This document shows, piece by piece, positions 7,641 to 14,640 of a DNA stretch of 49,376 bases. A program made the position numbers and the translations under genes. Positions within the stretch are counted from its first letter, which is position 1; each line of letters starts with the position of its first letter. The notes below the pieces were generated by a model. That model did no database searches, was not told the origin of the DNA, and saw nothing but the letters and a program-made list of their open reading frames with translations. This stretch comes from a virus (lineage: Duplodnaviria; Heunggongvirae; Uroviricota; Caudoviricetes), in IMG/VR virus record IMGVR_UViG_2531839433_000005, positions 1 to 49,376 of that record, one strand, 5' to 3'.

Positions 7641-8588
7641 ATGAGCAGCAAGCTTCATGGTCTTGTCTGGGAAGGGTGTGCCTTCACCGGCATGATCTTA
7701 TCCAGGGTGGCAGTTATGGCTCGCCTTGCAGATTACAGCAATGACGAAGGTGTGTCATGGCCTGCAGTGGAGACCATTCGTCGTCAGATTGGGGCAAAGA
7801 GTGAATCAACGGTTAAAGCTGCGATAGCAGAACTGGAAAAGAACGGCTGGCTGACGAAGGAGGAACGTAAGGTCGGTGGGCGTAATGAAAGCAATATCTA
7901 CCGTCTTAATGTGGAAAAACTCGAAGCAGCAGCAGCGGCAGCGCGTGAGGCATATAAACCGAAAAGAAAAATTAGCCAGGCAAAAAATGACCCGTCAAAT
8001 ATTGCCCCCTCAACGGTTAACCCATCAAATTTTGATGGATCAACCGTTGATAAAAAACAGTCGGATAGGGGGGCGATGGTTGGCCCCGATCCGTCAGTAT
8101 TAAAACCTGATCCGTCAGATAAAAGATCTTTTCGTCCGGAAGCTTCGCAACCGGACATGCAGACGGCTGAACAGGATTTTTTAACCCGACACCCTGACGC
8201 GGTTGTGTTCAGTGCGAAAAAACGCCAGTGGGGTAGCCAGGAAGATTTAGCGTGTGCGCAGTGGATCTGGGGGCGAATCGTGAGTCTTTACGAGCAGGCC
8301 GCCAGCGATGATGGCGAGATTTCGCGACCGAAAGAACCCAACTGGACCGCATGGGCCAACGACGTGCGCACAATGCGGATGCTGGATGGCAGAACTCACA
8401 GACAAATTTGTGAAATGTTTGGTCGGGTGCAGCGGGATCCATTTTGGGTAAAAAATATCATGAGTCCGTCAAAGCTTCGCGAAAAATGGGATGAACTGGT
8501 TATCCGCCTGGGGCGTTCGTCTGTACAGCGTTGTGTGAATCATATTTCTGAGCCGGATACCGAAATTCCGCCGGGGTTCAGGGGGTAA
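7641..8588 (+). CDS. Replication initiation protein (O-like, N-terminal winged-helix)
   Basis: 315-aa ORF directly upstream of the DnaC-like loader; standard lambdoid replication-module position. Confidence 0.6.
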   Translation: MSSKLHGLVWEGCAFTGMILSRVAVMARLADYSNDEGVSWPAVETIRRQIGAKSESTVKAAIAELEKNGWLTKEERKVGGRNESNIYRLNVEKLEAAAAAAREAYKPKRKISQAKNDPSNIAPSTVNPSNFDGSTVDKKQSDRGAMVGPDPSVLKPDPSDKRSFRPEASQPDMQTAEQDFLTRHPDAVVFSAKKRQWGSQEDLACAQWIWGRIVSLYEQAASDDGEISRPKEPNWTAWANDVRTMRMLDGRTHRQICEMFGRVQRDPFWVKNIMSPSKLREKWDELVIRLGRSSVQRCVNHISEPDTEIPPGFRG

Positions 8589-8594
8589 CGGGCC

Positions 8595-9341
8595 ATGAAA
8601 AATATCGCGGCAGGTGGTGTTCTTGAGCGTATCCGTAAGCTGACCCCGCAGCATGTAATCGCGCCGTACCGGACAGTGGACGAGTGGCGCGAGTGGCAAC
8701 TGGCAGAAGGGCGAAAACGTAGCGAGGAGATCAACCGCCAGAATCGCCAGTTGCGGGTGGAAAAAATCCTGAATCGTTCGGGCATCCAGCCTCTGCACAG
8801 CAAATGCTCGTTTGCGAATTATCAGGTGCAGAACGACGGGCAAAAACACGCGCTGAGCCAGGCAAAATCCATCGCTGACGAACTGATGACCGGGTGCACG
8901 AATTTTGTGTTCAGCGGTAAGCCGGGTACCGGAAAGAACCACCTTGCAGCCGCCATTGGCAATCATCTTCTGGCGAAAGGTCGCAGCGTGATTGTGATAA
9001 CGGTGGCTGATGTGATGCTGGCGTTACACAACAGCTACGACAACAAAAACTCAGGCGAAAAATTTTTACAGGGGTTGTGTGATGTTGACCTGCTTGTCCT
9101 GGATGAAATCGGAATGCAGCGGGATACGCGCAACGAGCAGGTCACGCTGAACCAGATAGTCGACCGCAGAACGGCTTCGATGCGTAGTGTCGGAATGCTG
9201 ACGAACCTTAACCACGTAGCGATGAGTACGCTTCTTGGCGAGCGTGTAATGGACCGCATGGTCATGAACGGTGGTCGCTGGGTGAATTTTAACTGGGAGA
9301 GCTGGCGTTCGAATGTCAGACACCTGAGGGTTGTGAAGTAA
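8595..9341 (+). CDS. DnaC-like helicase loader (AAA+ ATPase)
   Basis: Walker A GKPGTGKNHLAAAIG and Walker B DLLVLDEIG motifs; 248 aa. Confidence 0.85.
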   Translation: MKNIAAGGVLERIRKLTPQHVIAPYRTVDEWREWQLAEGRKRSEEINRQNRQLRVEKILNRSGIQPLHSKCSFANYQVQNDGQKHALSQAKSIADELMTGCTNFVFSGKPGTGKNHLAAAIGNHLLAKGRSVIVITVADVMLALHNSYDNKNSGEKFLQGLCDVDLLVLDEIGMQRDTRNEQVTLNQIVDRRTASMRSVGMLTNLNHVAMSTLLGERVMDRMVMNGGRWVNFNWESWRSNVRHLRVVK

Positions 9342-9355
9342 TTTCAGGAGGATTT

Positions 9356-9751
9356 ATGGCGAAACCTTTTTCTCTCGAACAGCGGGAAGAGCTGAAGGCA
9401 CGAATTATCGGGTTGGTACGCAAAAATGAACGCATGACGATGTCGCAGCTGGAGAGAGCGACAGGGGCAGGCTGGCACTCGGTCCGACGCTGCCTTGTGG
9501 ATGTGCTGGCTTGTGGCGATTTATACATGTCCGGGGAATACGGTGTTTTTGCATCAGAGCAGGCGTATCGCGTATGGCGTAAGACACCGGAGAAAAGAAC
9601 CGACCTGACACTGATTCGAAAGTTACCAGACGGAGAAATACGCCGCTACGACAGGAGCCAGAACATAATCTGTCGCGAGTGCCGGAAGAGTGAGGTTATG
9701 CAGCGAGTGCTGGCGTTTTATCAGGGTAATTTTCAGGAGGTGATGGCGTGA
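9356..9751 (+). CDS. Hypothetical protein
   Basis: 131-aa ORF with RBS AGGAGG; overlaps the next gene start. Confidence 0.45.
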   Translation: MAKPFSLEQREELKARIIGLVRKNERMTMSQLERATGAGWHSVRRCLVDVLACGDLYMSGEYGVFASEQAYRVWRKTPEKRTDLTLIRKLPDGEIRRYDRSQNIICRECRKSEVMQRVLAFYQGNFQEVMA

Positions 9752-10044
9752 GGGTGAGAGTCTATATCGCCGGTCCAATGACCGGGTATAAAAATTTCAA
9801 CCGTGAGGCGTTCCACAATGCGGAAGAGGAACTGAAACGGGAAGGGCATACCGTCTTAAACCCGGCAGTACTTCCGGACGGGCTGACACAGCCGCAGTAC
9901 ATGGATATCTGCATGGCGATGATTCGTTGCGTGGATGCGATTTACATGCTGCAAGGCTGGCAGCGGTCAGCAGGCGCTAAGGCGGAACTGGCGCTGGCGG
10001 AGAAGCTGGGGCATGCAGTTATTTTCCAGGAGGAGGTACAGTGA
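9748..10044 (+). CDS. DUF4406-like protein (nucleoside 2-deoxyribosyltransferase-like fold)
   Basis: 98 aa; N-terminal VYIAGPMTG motif characteristic of this family as recalled. Confidence 0.5.
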   Translation: MRVRVYIAGPMTGYKNFNREAFHNAEEELKREGHTVLNPAVLPDGLTQPQYMDICMAMIRCVDAIYMLQGWQRSAGAKAELALAEKLGHAVIFQEEVQ

Positions 10045-10325
10045 ATATCGACGCAACAATGACGATTGGTACGGCCCTCAATACGGGGCTGGCGCTTCTT
10101 GGTTGGTGCTACGTCATGTTCTGCTCATGGCGGTGGCTGTCACTGATGTTACTGAAAAAATGGAATAAACGCTGTAAACAGACGCAGCGGCAGAAGGCAA
10201 TGAATGCGTTTTTTGAGACCTTCGATATTGACAGTATGGAGCCAGGAGAGCCAGCTCGCGTGATTAGCAGAGGAGACGTTGTAATTCTTGTATACCGGAG
10301 TGAAGAGAAATATGAGCGAAATTAA
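10041..10325 (+). CDS. Hypothetical small membrane protein
   Basis: GTG start overlapping the previous stop; hydrophobic N-terminal segment. Confidence 0.4.
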   Translation: MNIDATMTIGTALNTGLALLGWCYVMFCSWRWLSLMLLKKWNKRCKQTQRQKAMNAFFETFDIDSMEPGEPARVISRGDVVILVYRSEEKYERN

Positions 10326-10424: not shown

Positions 10425-10637
10425 ATGTTAAATACACAAAAAAACATTAACGCGGAAAAATATAACGAGTGGGTGAAAAAATTTTCTGAGCAGATTTTTA
10501 AAATTACTGGCGACGAGAATGCGGCAAAAAGTGAATTAGAACCATGGACACCTGAAGGAGCCAACCCAAATTATTGCTGGTGGGATGTTGATCCAGTTGA
10601 TGCTGCAAATGAAGCCATGAGTTACCACAACGATTAA
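10425..10637 (+). CDS. Hypothetical small protein (AT-rich)
   Basis: 70-aa ORF with GGAGGAG RBS; convergent with the AT-rich two-gene cassette. Confidence 0.45.
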   Translation: MLNTQKNINAEKYNEWVKKFSEQIFKITGDENAAKSELEPWTPEGANPNYCWWDVDPVDAANEAMSYHND

Positions 10638-10675
10638 TGTCAGGAGGCCGCCCGAAAGGGCGGCTGTTCCGCTGT

Positions 10676-11230
10676 TCAATTATCTAAAATTGTGCTAAAT
10701 CTTTTTATTACCATTAAGAACGTTATAACAGTGATAAAAAAGGATGCATAGGATAAAAAGCTAACAATATATGCAGGTGCGCGAAAATACCATTTCATTA
10801 AATCTACTGCATTGTCAGGCAGGAAATATATTATCACTGAAAATATAACCAATACTATTGAAGTTAATATTGCATAAGCGACGTTGTGGCATAACTGCTC
10901 ATATATGGTTTTGTTAGTGTTTAATGATATCAATTTGTCTCGGGATTTGTTTCCTTCAATTATGTCTGATATCTTAGTGATGGTTTTTTGTTTTTGTTCA
11001 TAAATCATTATTACTGCACTCATTAATAGTGCTGTTGTAATAGCCCCGAAGTTAACGAAGACGGAAGCAATTGCCGGTTTCATTATTCCGTATGTCCAGC
11101 ACAGAACGAAAGAAAGAGATAACGGAACAATAAAATGTACGATAATGTCGCTCATCAACATTGTTCCACGCTGATCTGACATTGTTTTGTAGTGTTTTAT
11201 TATTACACCCAGCACATTTATTTTATTCAT
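10676..11230 (-). CDS. Multi-pass integral membrane protein (candidate effector of two-gene cassette)
   Basis: 184 aa with about four hydrophobic helix-length segments; start overlaps upstream stop (ATGA); strongly AT-rich codon usage unlike flanking phage genes. Confidence 0.6.
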   Translation of the reverse strand: MNKINVLGVIIKHYKTMSDQRGTMLMSDIIVHFIVPLSLSFVLCWTYGIMKPAIASVFVNFGAITTALLMSAVIMIYEQKQKTITKISDIIEGNKSRDKLISLNTNKTIYEQLCHNVAYAILTSIVLVIFSVIIYFLPDNAVDLMKWYFRAPAYIVSFLSYASFFITVITFLMVIKRFSTILDN

Positions 11231-12159
11231 ATAATCACCCCTTTGTTTCCGCTATGCAGTTCTAACAATATATCATTAGAAAGGTTTTTTATCGTGTCAT
11301 GAAGTGCTGTTAGATCAGGTATGCCTGTTAATGGGTCGATTTTTAAATCATTATCATCTAACTCTGCGGAAATTCCTTTTTTTAGTATGGTCTCATAATT
11401 GAAAACGACAGTCCGACTGCCGAGTTGTAAGCTTACTTTTATTGCATCACATTTATCTTCAATAATCTCAATGATGTTTCCTATATTCTTGTTTCTTAAA
11501 TCCCTGAAACTTCCGAACATGCCATTGTTTGCTTTTATTATTAAGTCTGTCTTGATGTTTGTTTTGTTTTGACCAAAGGAATCAGCAATGTCTTTTGGTG
11601 CTTTATATCCTTGAGCCTTAATTTGTTTTAATTCGGAATTGAGAATATATTGAGGGATTTTCTTATGATGTAATGGATTGATTCTTGCTTCGAGTTGAAA
11701 TTTGTTTTTTAGATATTCAGTGATAGAATCAGAAAGGACACCTCGAGCAGAAATATTATCGCAAGAGTGGAATGCAATAATTCCTTCTTCAAGGGTGTCT
11801 GGTAGGTATATTAAAATATAACGTTCTTTGAGTGTTACATCATAAGCAGTTGTCCTATAGTGGATTTTTTTGAGTTTTACATCTTTTATTTCACTGCTTT
11901 CTCCATATTTCCCAACTTTTATATAACCATATATAATTTTCTTTGAGTTATCAAAGTGAAGTTTAGCGTGTTGTTCCAGAGATATTTTAGTTTTGGATAC
12001 GCCAAACTCGATAGGGGTGTTTTTATATAGAGTAAAATAATCAACAAAAAGTTCATATGCCGTTTTTTTATTACTTAAACCCAATTCATTAAGTTTTTTG
12101 CTGGCTCGACTGCCTTTATGGGTCAATACGCGGAATGAATAGAAATTAACGCTGTGCAT
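11227..12159 (-). CDS. Cytoplasmic protein of unknown function (candidate sensor of two-gene cassette)
   Basis: 310-aa Lys/Ile/Asn-rich ORF, no recognisable catalytic motif; translationally coupled to downstream membrane protein. Confidence 0.6.
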   Translation of the reverse strand: MHSVNFYSFRVLTHKGSRASKKLNELGLSNKKTAYELFVDYFTLYKNTPIEFGVSKTKISLEQHAKLHFDNSKKIIYGYIKVGKYGESSEIKDVKLKKIHYRTTAYDVTLKERYILIYLPDTLEEGIIAFHSCDNISARGVLSDSITEYLKNKFQLEARINPLHHKKIPQYILNSELKQIKAQGYKAPKDIADSFGQNKTNIKTDLIIKANNGMFGSFRDLRNKNIGNIIEIIEDKCDAIKVSLQLGSRTVVFNYETILKKGISAELDDNDLKIDPLTGIPDLTALHDTIKNLSNDILLELHSGNKGVII

Positions 12160-12489
12160 GAAAAGTCCTTTTGAACATATAGGAGTATACTAGAACATAA
12201 ATAGATGCAATGCATAAAGGAAAAGCTACCGCAGGGCGAACTCACCCACCGATAACTCTTAACTGGTTGTTTGTAAAAGATAATACATAAATTTGGGTCT
12301 GTGTAAAGAGGTAAGCATCGTCAGGGCAAGGGAGATGTGTTAGGCAATATTGGTAAAATTTACGTTGAGGATAAAAACGGTTTGCGGGAAAAGGAGAGTT
12401 AAGTAGAATTGCTGCGGGTGCTTGAGGCTATCTGTCTCAGGCATGAACACCAAAAGGCAGATAGAGAAAAGCCCCAGTTAACATTACGC

Positions 12490-12560
12490 GTCCTGCAAGA
12501 CGCCTAACATTAATCTGAGGCCCAATCTATGTCTCACAAATGTAGGTTAGCCTCTTACGT
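12490..12560 (-). ncRNA. Putative Sok-like antisense RNA (position inferred, not seen directly)
   Basis: In hok/sok loci the antitoxin RNA is antisense to the mok translation-initiation region (mok ATG at 12529); coordinates approximate. Confidence 0.25.
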
Positions 12561-12585
12561 GCCGAAAGGCAAGGAGAAGCAGGCT

Positions 12586-12741
12586 ATGAAGCAGCAAAAG
12601 GCGATGTTAATCGCCCTGATCGTCATCTGTTTAACCGTCATAGTGACGGCACTGGTAACGAGGAAAGACCTCTGCGAGGTACGAATCCGAACCGGCCAGA
12701 CGGAGGTCGCTGTCTTCACAGCTTACGAACCTGAGGAGTAA
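12586..12741 (+). CDS. hok: Hok/Gef-family type I toxin
   Basis: 51-aa product MKQQKAMLIALIVICLTVIVTALVTRKDLCEVRIRTGQTEVAVFTAYEPEE matches the Hok/Gef family (HokD/RelF-like as recalled); upstream in-frame 70-codon extension from 12529 corresponds to a mok-like leader. Confidence 0.85.
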   Translation: MKQQKAMLIALIVICLTVIVTALVTRKDLCEVRIRTGQTEVAVFTAYEPEE

Positions 12742-12833: not shown

Positions 12834-12880
12834 TGGTTGACAAAATTATGAATATGCACCAATATCTTGGTTGACAAAAG
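12834..12880 (+). promoter_or_regulatory. Candidate promoter with direct-repeat operator
   Basis: TTGGTTGACAAAA at 12834..12846 and 12867..12880 (33 bp apart); -35 TTGACA 12837..12842, candidate -10 CAATAT 12860..12865. Confidence 0.4.
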
Positions 12881-12914
12881 TCGTTTTTTGCACGGATTAG
12901 GCGGAGAAGTGTCT

Positions 12915-13508
12915 ATGCAGAACCATCCATTCCCTTGGGAGTTCTTTCCTGAGTTAACAGAGGAGCGTTTAACCATTATAGCTGAGGAGTTGCTCAGGAT
13001 ACAGGATATTACTCATGAGTTATTGTCATCGCCCTATGATGATAATTACACTCGTGGTGGTTGTACATTTGGGCGTCAGCGGCAGGCGTTGCTACAAATG
13101 TGCGTACGAAAGACATATGACTGGTTAAGACTACTTAATCCTGGCATGGATCTTACGTTTTCAATTGGGAATGTCCCTATTCGTTTCTTTACTGATGACG
13201 CAGATAACCCCAAGAAACGCGGTTTTTTCAAAAGAAATGATGCTGATCGACTCTTTGAGTCAGAGGAGACTACTCCAACTATGCATCGCTTTGTGGTTGA
13301 AAAGCCTGAATTTGAAGGCGAGGGTGGTAGAGTCATTTTTAATGGCTATAACGTGTTTGGTGAGATCGTGTCAACTTGGACATATGGTGCGGACCGTGTT
13401 GTTATGCTGAACTCTGTCGATGATGTACCTCCAGCACCGGTACCTATCGAACTAGAACCTATCAGTGCGTCTAAGACTGAGAAGGAAAAGAAACAAAATA
13501 GCAAATAG
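12915..13508 (+). CDS. Hypothetical protein (module gene A)
   Basis: 197 aa from ATG with GGAG RBS (TTG at 12867 is an alternative start); no recognisable motif. Confidence 0.55.
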   Translation: MQNHPFPWEFFPELTEERLTIIAEELLRIQDITHELLSSPYDDNYTRGGCTFGRQRQALLQMCVRKTYDWLRLLNPGMDLTFSIGNVPIRFFTDDADNPKKRGFFKRNDADRLFESEETTPTMHRFVVEKPEFEGEGGRVIFNGYNVFGEIVSTWTYGADRVVMLNSVDDVPPAPVPIELEPISASKTEKEKKQNSK

Positions 13509-13518
13509 TGGGTGAAAT

Positions 13519-14640
13519 GTGTTTAACGGTACTAATTTAAGACTTGCTCGTCTGTATCACGAGCTATCTCTGGAGCAGGTTGCTGAGAAGGTTGAAAAAA
13601 CACGCCAGTATGTACAGCGACTGGAGTCTGGTTCAGCTACTCCATCCCCAGAGCTTATAAATAAATTAGCCGAGGTTTTGCGCGTGAAGCCCGCCTTTTT
13701 CGAAGGGCAGGAACATTCTCCTGTTAATGAAGAGATTGTACATTTTCGTAAACGCGCCTCGACAAGGATGTCAACGAAGCTATCAACACTCGCTAAGGCT
13801 GAGTTTTATCGTCGTTTTATTGATGTATTTGAAGATAACCTTAATTTGTCACCTGTTCGATTTCCTGAATTTCGTGTCCATACACAAGAAGATATCGAGC
13901 GAGCGGCAGAAAAATGTCGTATTGAGTGGGGCTTAGGCTTTGGCCCAATTGAAAATATGACTCGCCTTGCCGAGAAACTTGGGGCGTTTGTTACTTCATT
14001 TGACTCCGTTTCGGATGAAGTAGATGCACTGTCTGTTCCTCTACGAAGGCCTTTTATTGTTCGAAATACAGCTAAAAATTCACCTTGTAGGCAACGCTTT
14101 GATATTGCTCATGAGGTTGCCCATTTGATTCTTCATGAAGGAATTTCTACTGGGGATAGATTAACTGAATCCCAGGCAAACCGTTTTGCCTCTGCTCTGT
14201 TGCTTCCCAGAACGTCGATGGCGAAATATTTTCCAAGACCTGTGGGGGGGAGGATAAATTGGCAGGGACTAAGCCAATTTAAGTTGACATGGAAAGTAAG
14301 TAAGGCTGCCATTGTTTACAGGGCTCATCAATTAGGACTTTTGACTGATGAGCAGTACAGAACTGCATTTATGGGGTTGAAACGGAAAGGGGAAGCTATT
14401 GATGAAAAAGAAGATTATCTAATCCCTCATGAGCGTCCTGAGTTATTCCGTCGGGCTTTATCGTTTTTATTTGAAGAGTTAGGATACGACCCACAGCGTA
14501 TAGCTGATGAAATGGATATAGAAGTGGACATTTTTTATGAGTTAGCAGGAGATGATCTTCCTGCGGTTCATGAACTGCCAGGAAGTGGTGATGTTGTTTC
14601 ACTACAATCTTACCGAACTCTTAGAGGCAAAATTCACTAG
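13519..14640 (+). CDS. XRE-family HTH fused to ImmA/IrrE-type zinc metallopeptidase (module gene B)
   Basis: N-terminal HTH (LSLEQVAEKVEKTRQYVQRLESG); HExxH motif HEVAHLILHE; GTG start 10 nt after the upstream stop. Confidence 0.75.
   Translation: MFNGTNLRLARLYHELSLEQVAEKVEKTRQYVQRLESGSATPSPELINKLAEVLRVKPAFFEGQEHSPVNEEIVHFRKRASTRMSTKLSTLAKAEFYRRFIDVFEDNLNLSPVRFPEFRVHTQEDIERAAEKCRIEWGLGFGPIENMTRLAEKLGAFVTSFDSVSDEVDALSVPLRRPFIVRNTAKNSPCRQRFDIAHEVAHLILHEGISTGDRLTESQANRFASALLLPRTSMAKYFPRPVGGRINWQGLSQFKLTWKVSKAAIVYRAHQLGLLTDEQYRTAFMGLKRKGEAIDEKEDYLIPHERPELFRRALSFLFEELGYDPQRIADEMDIEVDIFYELAGDDLPAVHELPGSGDVVSLQSYRTLRGKIH

Follow-up and report, generated by a model that had tools for sequence, protein, structure and literature searches.

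A mobile two-gene cassette of an Escherichia coli lambdoid prophage as a candidate RexAB-type abortive-infection system

RexAB of phage lambda is the oldest known abortive-infection system. The paper on RexABpp (PP_5643/PP_5644) from the Pseudomonas putida prophage P1, a Rex-like pair for which defense has been demonstrated experimentally, puts the number of Rex-like systems described so far at only five (PMC12894663). A second relevant case is Sucellos (SclA/SclB) from the Vibrio cholerae superintegron, a two-gene cassette with its own promoter in which both genes are required, the phenotype is abortive, and SclB is predicted to form a transmembrane (TM) pore; its homologs are found above all in prophages and "often in Salmonella" (Darracq et al., bioRxiv 10.1101/2024.07.02.601686). 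Here we analyze a pair of adjacent genes, A and B, in a 49,376-nucleotide viral sequence (IMG/VR record IMGVR_UViG_2531839433_000005, positions 1 to 49,376; hereafter the window). By analogy with these systems, we propose, with a probability of roughly 0.7, that the pair is a RexAB-type two-component abortive-infection or phage-exclusion system, a moron of a lambdoid prophage that combines a sensor with a membrane effector.

The window is 100% identical to a Rac/Qin-like lambdoid prophage of the enterotoxigenic E. coli (ETEC) strains 504239 and TW11681, in whose prophage records A and B are each annotated as "hypothetical protein" (WP_000556394.1 and WP_001033795.1, respectively). The cassette contains the following elements, with lengths given in amino acids (aa) or nucleotides (nt) and genes taken from open reading frame (ORF) calls:

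11227..12159, minus strand: gene A, 310 aa, ATG start, ORF call; proposed infection sensor with a predicted two-domain fold of the RexA/RdgC class
10676..11230, minus strand: gene B, 184 aa, ATG start, ORF call; proposed pore or channel effector of the inner membrane, four predicted TM helices
11227..11230, minus strand: ATGA stop/start overlap of A and B, read directly in the sequence, implying translational coupling
12280..12307, minus strand: candidate promoter, TTTACA-16 nt-TATTAT, from a consensus scan (10/12 matches), some 120 nt upstream from the start of A
10646..10668, no strand assigned: GC-rich hairpin between a convergent 70-aa gene and B, -19 kcal/mol, z = -2.5; probable terminator and left junction

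Both genes lie antisense to the surrounding early-right operon. To their left are an HTH_36/O-like gene (7641..8588) and a DnaC-like gene (8595..9341); the distance from the replication gene rightward to the pair is about 3.4 kb. In the 100%-identical record, a further 4.3 kb or so separates A from the start of the Q antiterminator on its right. The 1.7-kb block of the cassette has a GC content of 0.334 against 0.515 for the window, with values of 0.31-0.35 over 10600..12199 compared with 0.51-0.55 in the replication genes on the left. A Shine-Dalgarno-like AAAGGGG is placed 7-8 nt ahead of the B start, within the 3' end of A. The cassette probably has a promoter of its own that drives its expression without reliance on the lytic operon, and the hairpin, which has no U-tract on the minus strand, probably serves as a terminator. 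Measured against alleles of 5-25% amino-acid divergence, the ratio of nonsynonymous to synonymous substitution rates (dN/dS) is 0.05-0.16 for the two genes (0.04-0.16 when given for B by itself), with no indels, and both genes are under strong purifying selection. Given the low ratios, the lack of indels and the confirmed layout, A and B are real genes and the observation itself is real.

The two genes behave as one unit. They are intact and adjacent in 58/61 loci across Gammaproteobacteria, comprising 38 of the first 41 loci and every one of 20 found by scanning species-representative genomes, and each of the three exceptions, all among the first 41, has a truncated or frameshifted copy. The pairing is kept down to an A identity of about 20% with the window copy, and 45 of 58 loci share the 4-nt overlap. 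The pairwise identity of A tracks that of B closely (Pearson 0.986 across 55 loci), B being the better conserved partner in 90% of the comparisons. Because of this strict linkage, the co-divergence, the conservation of B and the recurring overlap, the sequences indicate that A and B form an obligate two-protein machine, in which a conserved effector would be joined to a faster-evolving sensor.

What kind of protein is A? Hydropathy analysis finds no hydrophobic segment in it, and G83 and G86 are the sole invariant residues across 75 diverse homologs; an enzyme is therefore unlikely, and a binder or sensor fits. The AlphaFold model of A reached a mediocre predicted local distance difference test (pLDDT) score of 71 with a shallow alignment, and a confident 91.6, with a predicted template modeling (pTM) score of 0.87, with the alignment of the 75 sequences. 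The model begins with a beta-rich N-terminal domain (residues 1-155), continues with an alpha/beta domain as an insertion (157-272) and ends in a long helix (283-301), a predicted layout that matches the split globular domain and inserted dimerization domain of RexA. RexA is also the nearest structural match of the model, followed by Iml3 (score 8.6), RdgC (7.7 over 189 residues), CENP-N (7.6) and Chl4 (7.0). Judged by its model, A belongs to the RexA/RdgC/Iml3-Chl4 fold class, with RexA as the closest member, and homology is likely, though not proven. RdgC is a chromosomal housekeeping protein without a membrane partner; A has no match to the Pfam RdgC model and is not a stand-alone chromosomal gene. 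The pI of A, 9.2, is suggestive of a dimeric sensor that would bind DNA non-specifically.

B is encoded directly downstream of A and is co-expressed with it, as judged from the adjacency and the ATGA overlap. Hydropathy analysis reveals four hydrophobic segments (roughly 25-43, 58-76, 119-137 and 155-173); the termini of B are basic, and residues 77-117 form a long charged loop. Invariant positions are N60, F61, G62, I64, A67, L68 and L69 in the second predicted TM helix (TM2) and Q79 just past it, giving the local motif VNFGAITTALLM...Q, together with K176-R177 at the C-terminus. Lambda RexB, a protein of 144 aa, has four TM helices as well. In comparison with the lambda pair, A is longer by 31 residues and B by 40, the charged loop that separates TM2 from TM3 in B being 40 residues long. 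The initial annotation had described two minus-strand genes with the ATGA overlap, in an AT-rich block opposite in strand to the surrounding operon and between the replication genes and Q, encoding a 310-aa soluble protein without a catalytic motif and a 184-aa multi-TM protein, and had likened this architecture to the sensor and membrane effector of RexA/RexB. All of these features were recovered in our analysis, and the proposed architecture is now supported computationally by the fold class of the A model, the four TM segments of B and the linkage of the pair.

In conjunction with what has been described for lambda RexAB and its analogs, these properties suggest the following model. A would act as a cytoplasmic, non-enzymatic sensor with a RexA/RdgC-type two-domain fold, a dimer of which may clamp DNA or an intermediate of phage protein and DNA that arises at an early stage of infection. 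Once activated, A would engage B, a four-TM protein of the inner membrane whose ratio to A would be fixed by translational coupling. Oligomerization of B into a channel or pore may collapse the membrane potential, and growth arrest or cell death before the infecting phage completes its cycle would abort the infection. The DNA binding and dimerization of A, its activation of B, pore formation and the antiphage phenotype are all taken by analogy from lambda RexAB, P. putida RexABpp and V. cholerae Sucellos. The proposal gains support because the latter two systems, both recognized as RexAB-like from predicted structure and lacking a Pfam match, defend experimentally.

Several observations weigh against a RexAB-type assignment. 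No sequence similarity to the lambda pair is detectable with Pfam or hhalign: two A profiles (A1 and A3) aligned to lambda RexA with a probability of 0.1-0.3% and a B profile (A2) to lambda RexB with 0.5%, and the Pfam RexA and RexB models matched neither A nor B nor any of the 75 A relatives. RexApp, by comparison, is recognizable as a RexA homolog by HHpred (98%), whereas A is not by hhalign against the single lambda RexA sequence. A Foldseek search with A against viral structures (BFVD) returned five uncharacterized phage proteins, RexA not being one of them. B found no relative of known function in our searches, which included PDB chains, and its pore activity is therefore a pure analogy. 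Promoter-like sites are not more numerous in the region than expected from shuffled sequence, and the candidate at 12280..12307 is favored by its position only. Unlike lambda rexAB, which lies downstream of cI, the window pair is not beside the immunity repressor and is located in the nin region on the opposite strand; a repressor-adjacent location was found for the copy in the Pseudomonas filamentous phage PfAC16, and is not universal among described Rex-like systems. Finally, the roles are reversed in the Rex-like system of phage Butters, where the effector is cytosolic and is held back by its membrane partner, so the direction of signaling is not fixed by the architecture.

The Butters pair (gp30/31) is one of a group of Rex-like pairs in actinobacteriophages, together with Sbash gp30/31 and CarolAnn gp44/43, that share with A/B a cytosolic RexA-like protein with a membrane partner in a temperate phage and act in heterotypic defense. 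They differ in their occurrence in Actinobacteria, in having been found by BLAST-level similarity to Rex and, for Butters, in the cytosolic nature of the effector. Kiwa (KwaA/KwaB) also consists of a four-TM membrane protein and a soluble DNA-binding protein of about 310 aa. It was rejected as an identity for the pair: PADLOC gave no Kiwa match for A/B or the 75 A relatives, Pfam DUF4868 was not found, and the gene order is the opposite.

How far does the family extend, and has it been described? Both proteins match only PHROGs of unknown function (phrog_15250 in the case of B). Neither has a match in Pfam (A at E<=1), NCBIfam or PADLOC 2.0 (E<=1), and sequence and profile searches of PDB chains with A and B gave nothing meaningful. 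The 75 diverse relatives of A likewise have none in Pfam (E<=5) or PADLOC; a lone DUF6731 match in one of the 75 (E = 0.0037) was treated as noise. A k-mer-based search with A recovered relatives only in Enterobacterales, at identities of at least 46%, and the same type of search with B reached somewhat wider, down to 37% identity. By exhaustive profile search, the A family comprises 575 clusters at 50% identity (E <= 1e-3), or 115 at E <= 1e-10, and most of the members listed have about 300-330 residues. Its members occur in E. coli, Salmonella, Klebsiella, Pseudomonas, Acinetobacter, Aeromonas, Vibrio and Photobacterium. The clusters closest to A and B hold 361 and 398 member sequences, respectively, and both are source-named Salmonella. 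There are at least two further A subfamilies, clusters P0106 (308 aa, 82 members) and P0128 (302 aa, 298 members), with members in E. coli, Salmonella, Klebsiella, Enterobacter and Citrobacter that are all annotated as hypothetical. A 1.7-kb contig (L044) of a metagenome-assembled genome labeled Flavobacterium psychrophilum carries a gene with 70% identity to B and a partial A at a GC content of 0.355; rather than an occurrence in Bacteroidota, this is most likely enterobacterial DNA that was binned wrongly.

Most likely, then, the cassette is a RexAB/Sucellos-type system of a known kind, not a new kind of system. The A/B family fits the description of Sucellos in several respects: it is a two-gene system, RexAB-like by predicted structure and unmatched by the Pfam RexA/RexB models, and it has homologs in prophages, in the large Salmonella-named clusters and in Vibrio sp. 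and Photobacterium. On this likeness, drawn from the published description of Sucellos, we consider it somewhat better than even that the two families are the same. The primer name "367-368" in that paper suggests that SclA/SclB of V. cholerae N16961 are VCA0367-VCA0368. Our copy resides in a lambdoid prophage of E. coli, whereas Sucellos resides in an integron cassette. No V. cholerae member was present among 20 clusters looked up, including the relatives nearest the Vibrio copy, and a k-mer protein search with the 75-sequence A profile returned close relatives only, none of them from V. cholerae. The Vibrio sp. locus (L051), checked as a possible integron array, proved phage-like, without attC-type repeats. 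In a Photobacterium sp. OFAV2-7 contig (L067, 1..3810), the A homolog ends a run of small co-directional genes that include a ParD/ParE pair; this arrangement looks like an integron array of a chromosome, and a search for attC sites identified none. A more tentative possibility is that the A/B superfamily is separate from Sucellos and represents an undescribed RexAB-analogous branch of at least 575 clusters in Gammaproteobacterial phages, inoviruses and plasmids, with a sensor intermediate between RdgC and RexA. The initial annotation had called the candidate system uncharacterized and had proposed profile and structure searches against RexA/RexB and defense-system databases. The label stands insofar as no Pfam, NCBIfam or PADLOC family covers the two proteins, and is probably out of date given that Sucellos may be the same family; as to the searches, the fold comparison placed the A model in the RexA class, and profile comparison with RexA/RexB, Pfam and PADLOC did not.

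The pair is mobile. In Rac/Qin-like prophages of E. coli, A/B lies in the nin region, always directly upstream of hokD; in lambdoid prophages of Enterobacter it is also in the nin region, but co-directional with the early operon. In a Yersinia P2-like prophage, A/B is found between the gpA and portal genes, followed by IetA (1e-76) and IetS (5e-49), and a second P2-like prophage has it flanked by tail-fibre genes on one side and the genes for the invertase and sheath on the other. These two P2 positions correspond to the tin/old and Z/fun antiviral hotspots reported by Rousset et al. 2022. Other copies lie beside integrases, once adjoining a TIR-like protein and once a Shosta/PsyrTA-like pair, within a myovirus tail module, beside the repressor of PfAC16 (a Pf inovirus), and on small mobilizable Col-type plasmids (5.4-5.7 kb) and Acinetobacter plasmids. 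The GC content of the cassette was lower than that of its flanks, by 5-23 points, in 20 of 20 genomes. A/B moves as a unit from one defense hotspot to another, in prophages of the lambdoid, P2-like, myovirus and Pf types and on small plasmids, and the earlier identification of a prophage defense hotspot agrees with its position beside Rosmer, IetAS, the Shosta-like pair or the TIR-like protein in independent contexts. Within E. coli, the pair is rare and patchy, being present in 37 of 5426 complete genomes as two alleles. E. coli DS26-1 (NZ_CP035879.1 830478..833454, H33/H61) has the sole disrupted copy among the 37, split by IS1.

Additional genes accompany individual copies. The Shosta/PsyrTA-like pair adjoins an integrase-proximal copy (L040 6597..7744, minus strand) and encodes a PRTase-like protein (PsyrT 6e-9, ShosT 2e-5) and a 189-aa protein that has no database match and was judged SLOG/DprA-like from its sequence alone; the two are probably a system of that type. 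A prophage contig that also bears A/B encodes a pertussis-toxin S1-like ADP-ribosyltransferase (L027 150..875, minus strand; PF02917, 1e-16). In the cassette-bearing prophage of E. coli E24377A, genes for a Ser/Thr kinase and a PP2C phosphatase directly follow Q (L001 11509..13013, plus strand).

Where does the acquired unit begin and end? On the left, homology to phages without A/B stops at window position 10663, and homology to contexts that share only A/B begins at 10640; on the right, backbone homology restarts at about 12363-12370, the start of a hok/sok locus. The unit accordingly spans from about 10640/10664 to about 12362, with the hairpin on its left edge and hok/sok on its right. The convergent gene at 10425..10637 (phrog_4659) had been suspected of belonging to the same acquired block, a suggestion that the comparison contradicts: it is common to Stx and other lambdoid phages without A/B, and other E. 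coli prophages have A/B without it (H47-H50, in which homology starts at window position 10640, and loci L002 and L003). It is part of the prophage backbone, and its inheritance independently of A/B led us to reject it as a third component of the cassette. Just upstream of this gene, at 9748..10325 on the plus strand, two uncharacterized nin-region genes encode a protein of DUF4406 (nucleoside 2-deoxyribosyltransferase-like, 5e-38) and one of DUF4752 (4e-43). To the right of the cassette, the window contains two further loci:

12416..12741, plus strand: hok/sok type I toxin-antitoxin locus, with Rfam sok (RF01794) at 12416..12591 and the Pfam Hok/Gef ORF ending at 12741
12867..14640, plus strand: complete Rosmer system, with RmrT at 12867..13508 (PADLOC 7e-93) and RmrA at 13519..14640 (HTH and M78 peptidase, 8e-201)

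The hok/sok locus adjoins A/B in every E. coli context examined and in none of the other genera, and this restriction led us to reject it as a part of the A/B system. Rosmer lies directly to the right of hok/sok in the window and is missing from the otherwise similar E24377A prophage, which points to a second, independent insertion into the same hotspot.

Could the pair serve a purpose other than abortive infection? A module of the addiction or toxin-antitoxin (TA) type, in which B would be a membrane toxin checked by A, or A would be toxic and sequestered by B as in Butters gp30/gp31, would mainly stabilize its carrier prophage or plasmid, with an antiphage effect that is secondary or absent. 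The copies on the 5.4-5.7 kb mobilizable plasmids and on Acinetobacter plasmids are in line with such a role, as are the constant presence of hok/sok beside A/B in E. coli, the tight coupling that sets the two proteins' stoichiometry, and the precedent for reversed roles in Butters. We nevertheless consider it unlikely: a protein of 310 aa with a predicted RexA/RdgC fold is unlike the small, labile antitoxins of classical systems, no TA family in Pfam or NCBIfam was matched by either protein, and the sites that A/B occupies are classic defense hotspots beside other defense systems. TA and abortive-infection functions are, moreover, not mutually exclusive. Less likely still is superinfection exclusion at the envelope, by which B, with A assisting, would keep the DNA of incoming phages out or stop them at an early step at the membrane, as Sie or Imm proteins do, and leave the host unharmed. 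B resembles many Sie proteins in being a small, polytopic, prophage-encoded protein predicted in the inner membrane, and a sieB gene is present in related prophages; known injection blockers, on the other hand, lack a cytoplasmic partner like A, which is strictly conserved, 310 aa long and predicted to have the fold of a DNA clamp, the pair is also found in filamentous phages and on plasmids, and its nearest characterized analogs work through growth arrest or death after infection.

The least likely of these explanations is that A serves the prophage itself, modulating the choice between lysis and lysogeny as RexA does or controlling RecA recombination as RdgC does, with B as an anchor or regulator of A. 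In lambda, RexA can bias the switch without help from RexB, RdgC limits RecA activities, the model of A matches both folds, and the PfAC16 pair is situated beside a repressor. Yet A/B moves among unrelated phage types, plasmids and positions, among them a tail module, the two hotspots of P2-like prophages and sites close to integrases, and this spread across unrelated carriers makes a role in the regulatory circuit of one phage hard to reconcile with the data. It is also B that is the better conserved partner, and the window pair is far from the repressor, on the strand opposite to the early operon. A holin or lysis role was rejected, as A/B is never located in a lysis cassette and is present in inoviruses and plasmids. 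We therefore retain a RexAB-type abortive-infection or exclusion system as the probable function of the cassette.

At its broadest, the analysis describes a large family, 575 clusters strong, with a predicted RexAB architecture, the members of which are annotated merely as "hypothetical" across Pfam, NCBIfam, PADLOC 2.0 and RefSeq; genome annotation pipelines could label thousands of genes on this basis. If the family is that of Sucellos, the gain is modest and would mainly extend a 2024 discovery to the prophages of ETEC. In either case, the locus offers a copy native to E. coli and genetically tractable, in which to study how a sensor with a predicted RexA fold may activate a four-TM effector. 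If the superfamily is instead a separate branch, Rex-type sensors may descend from an RdgC-like DNA clamp and read the recombination or replication intermediates of infecting phages.

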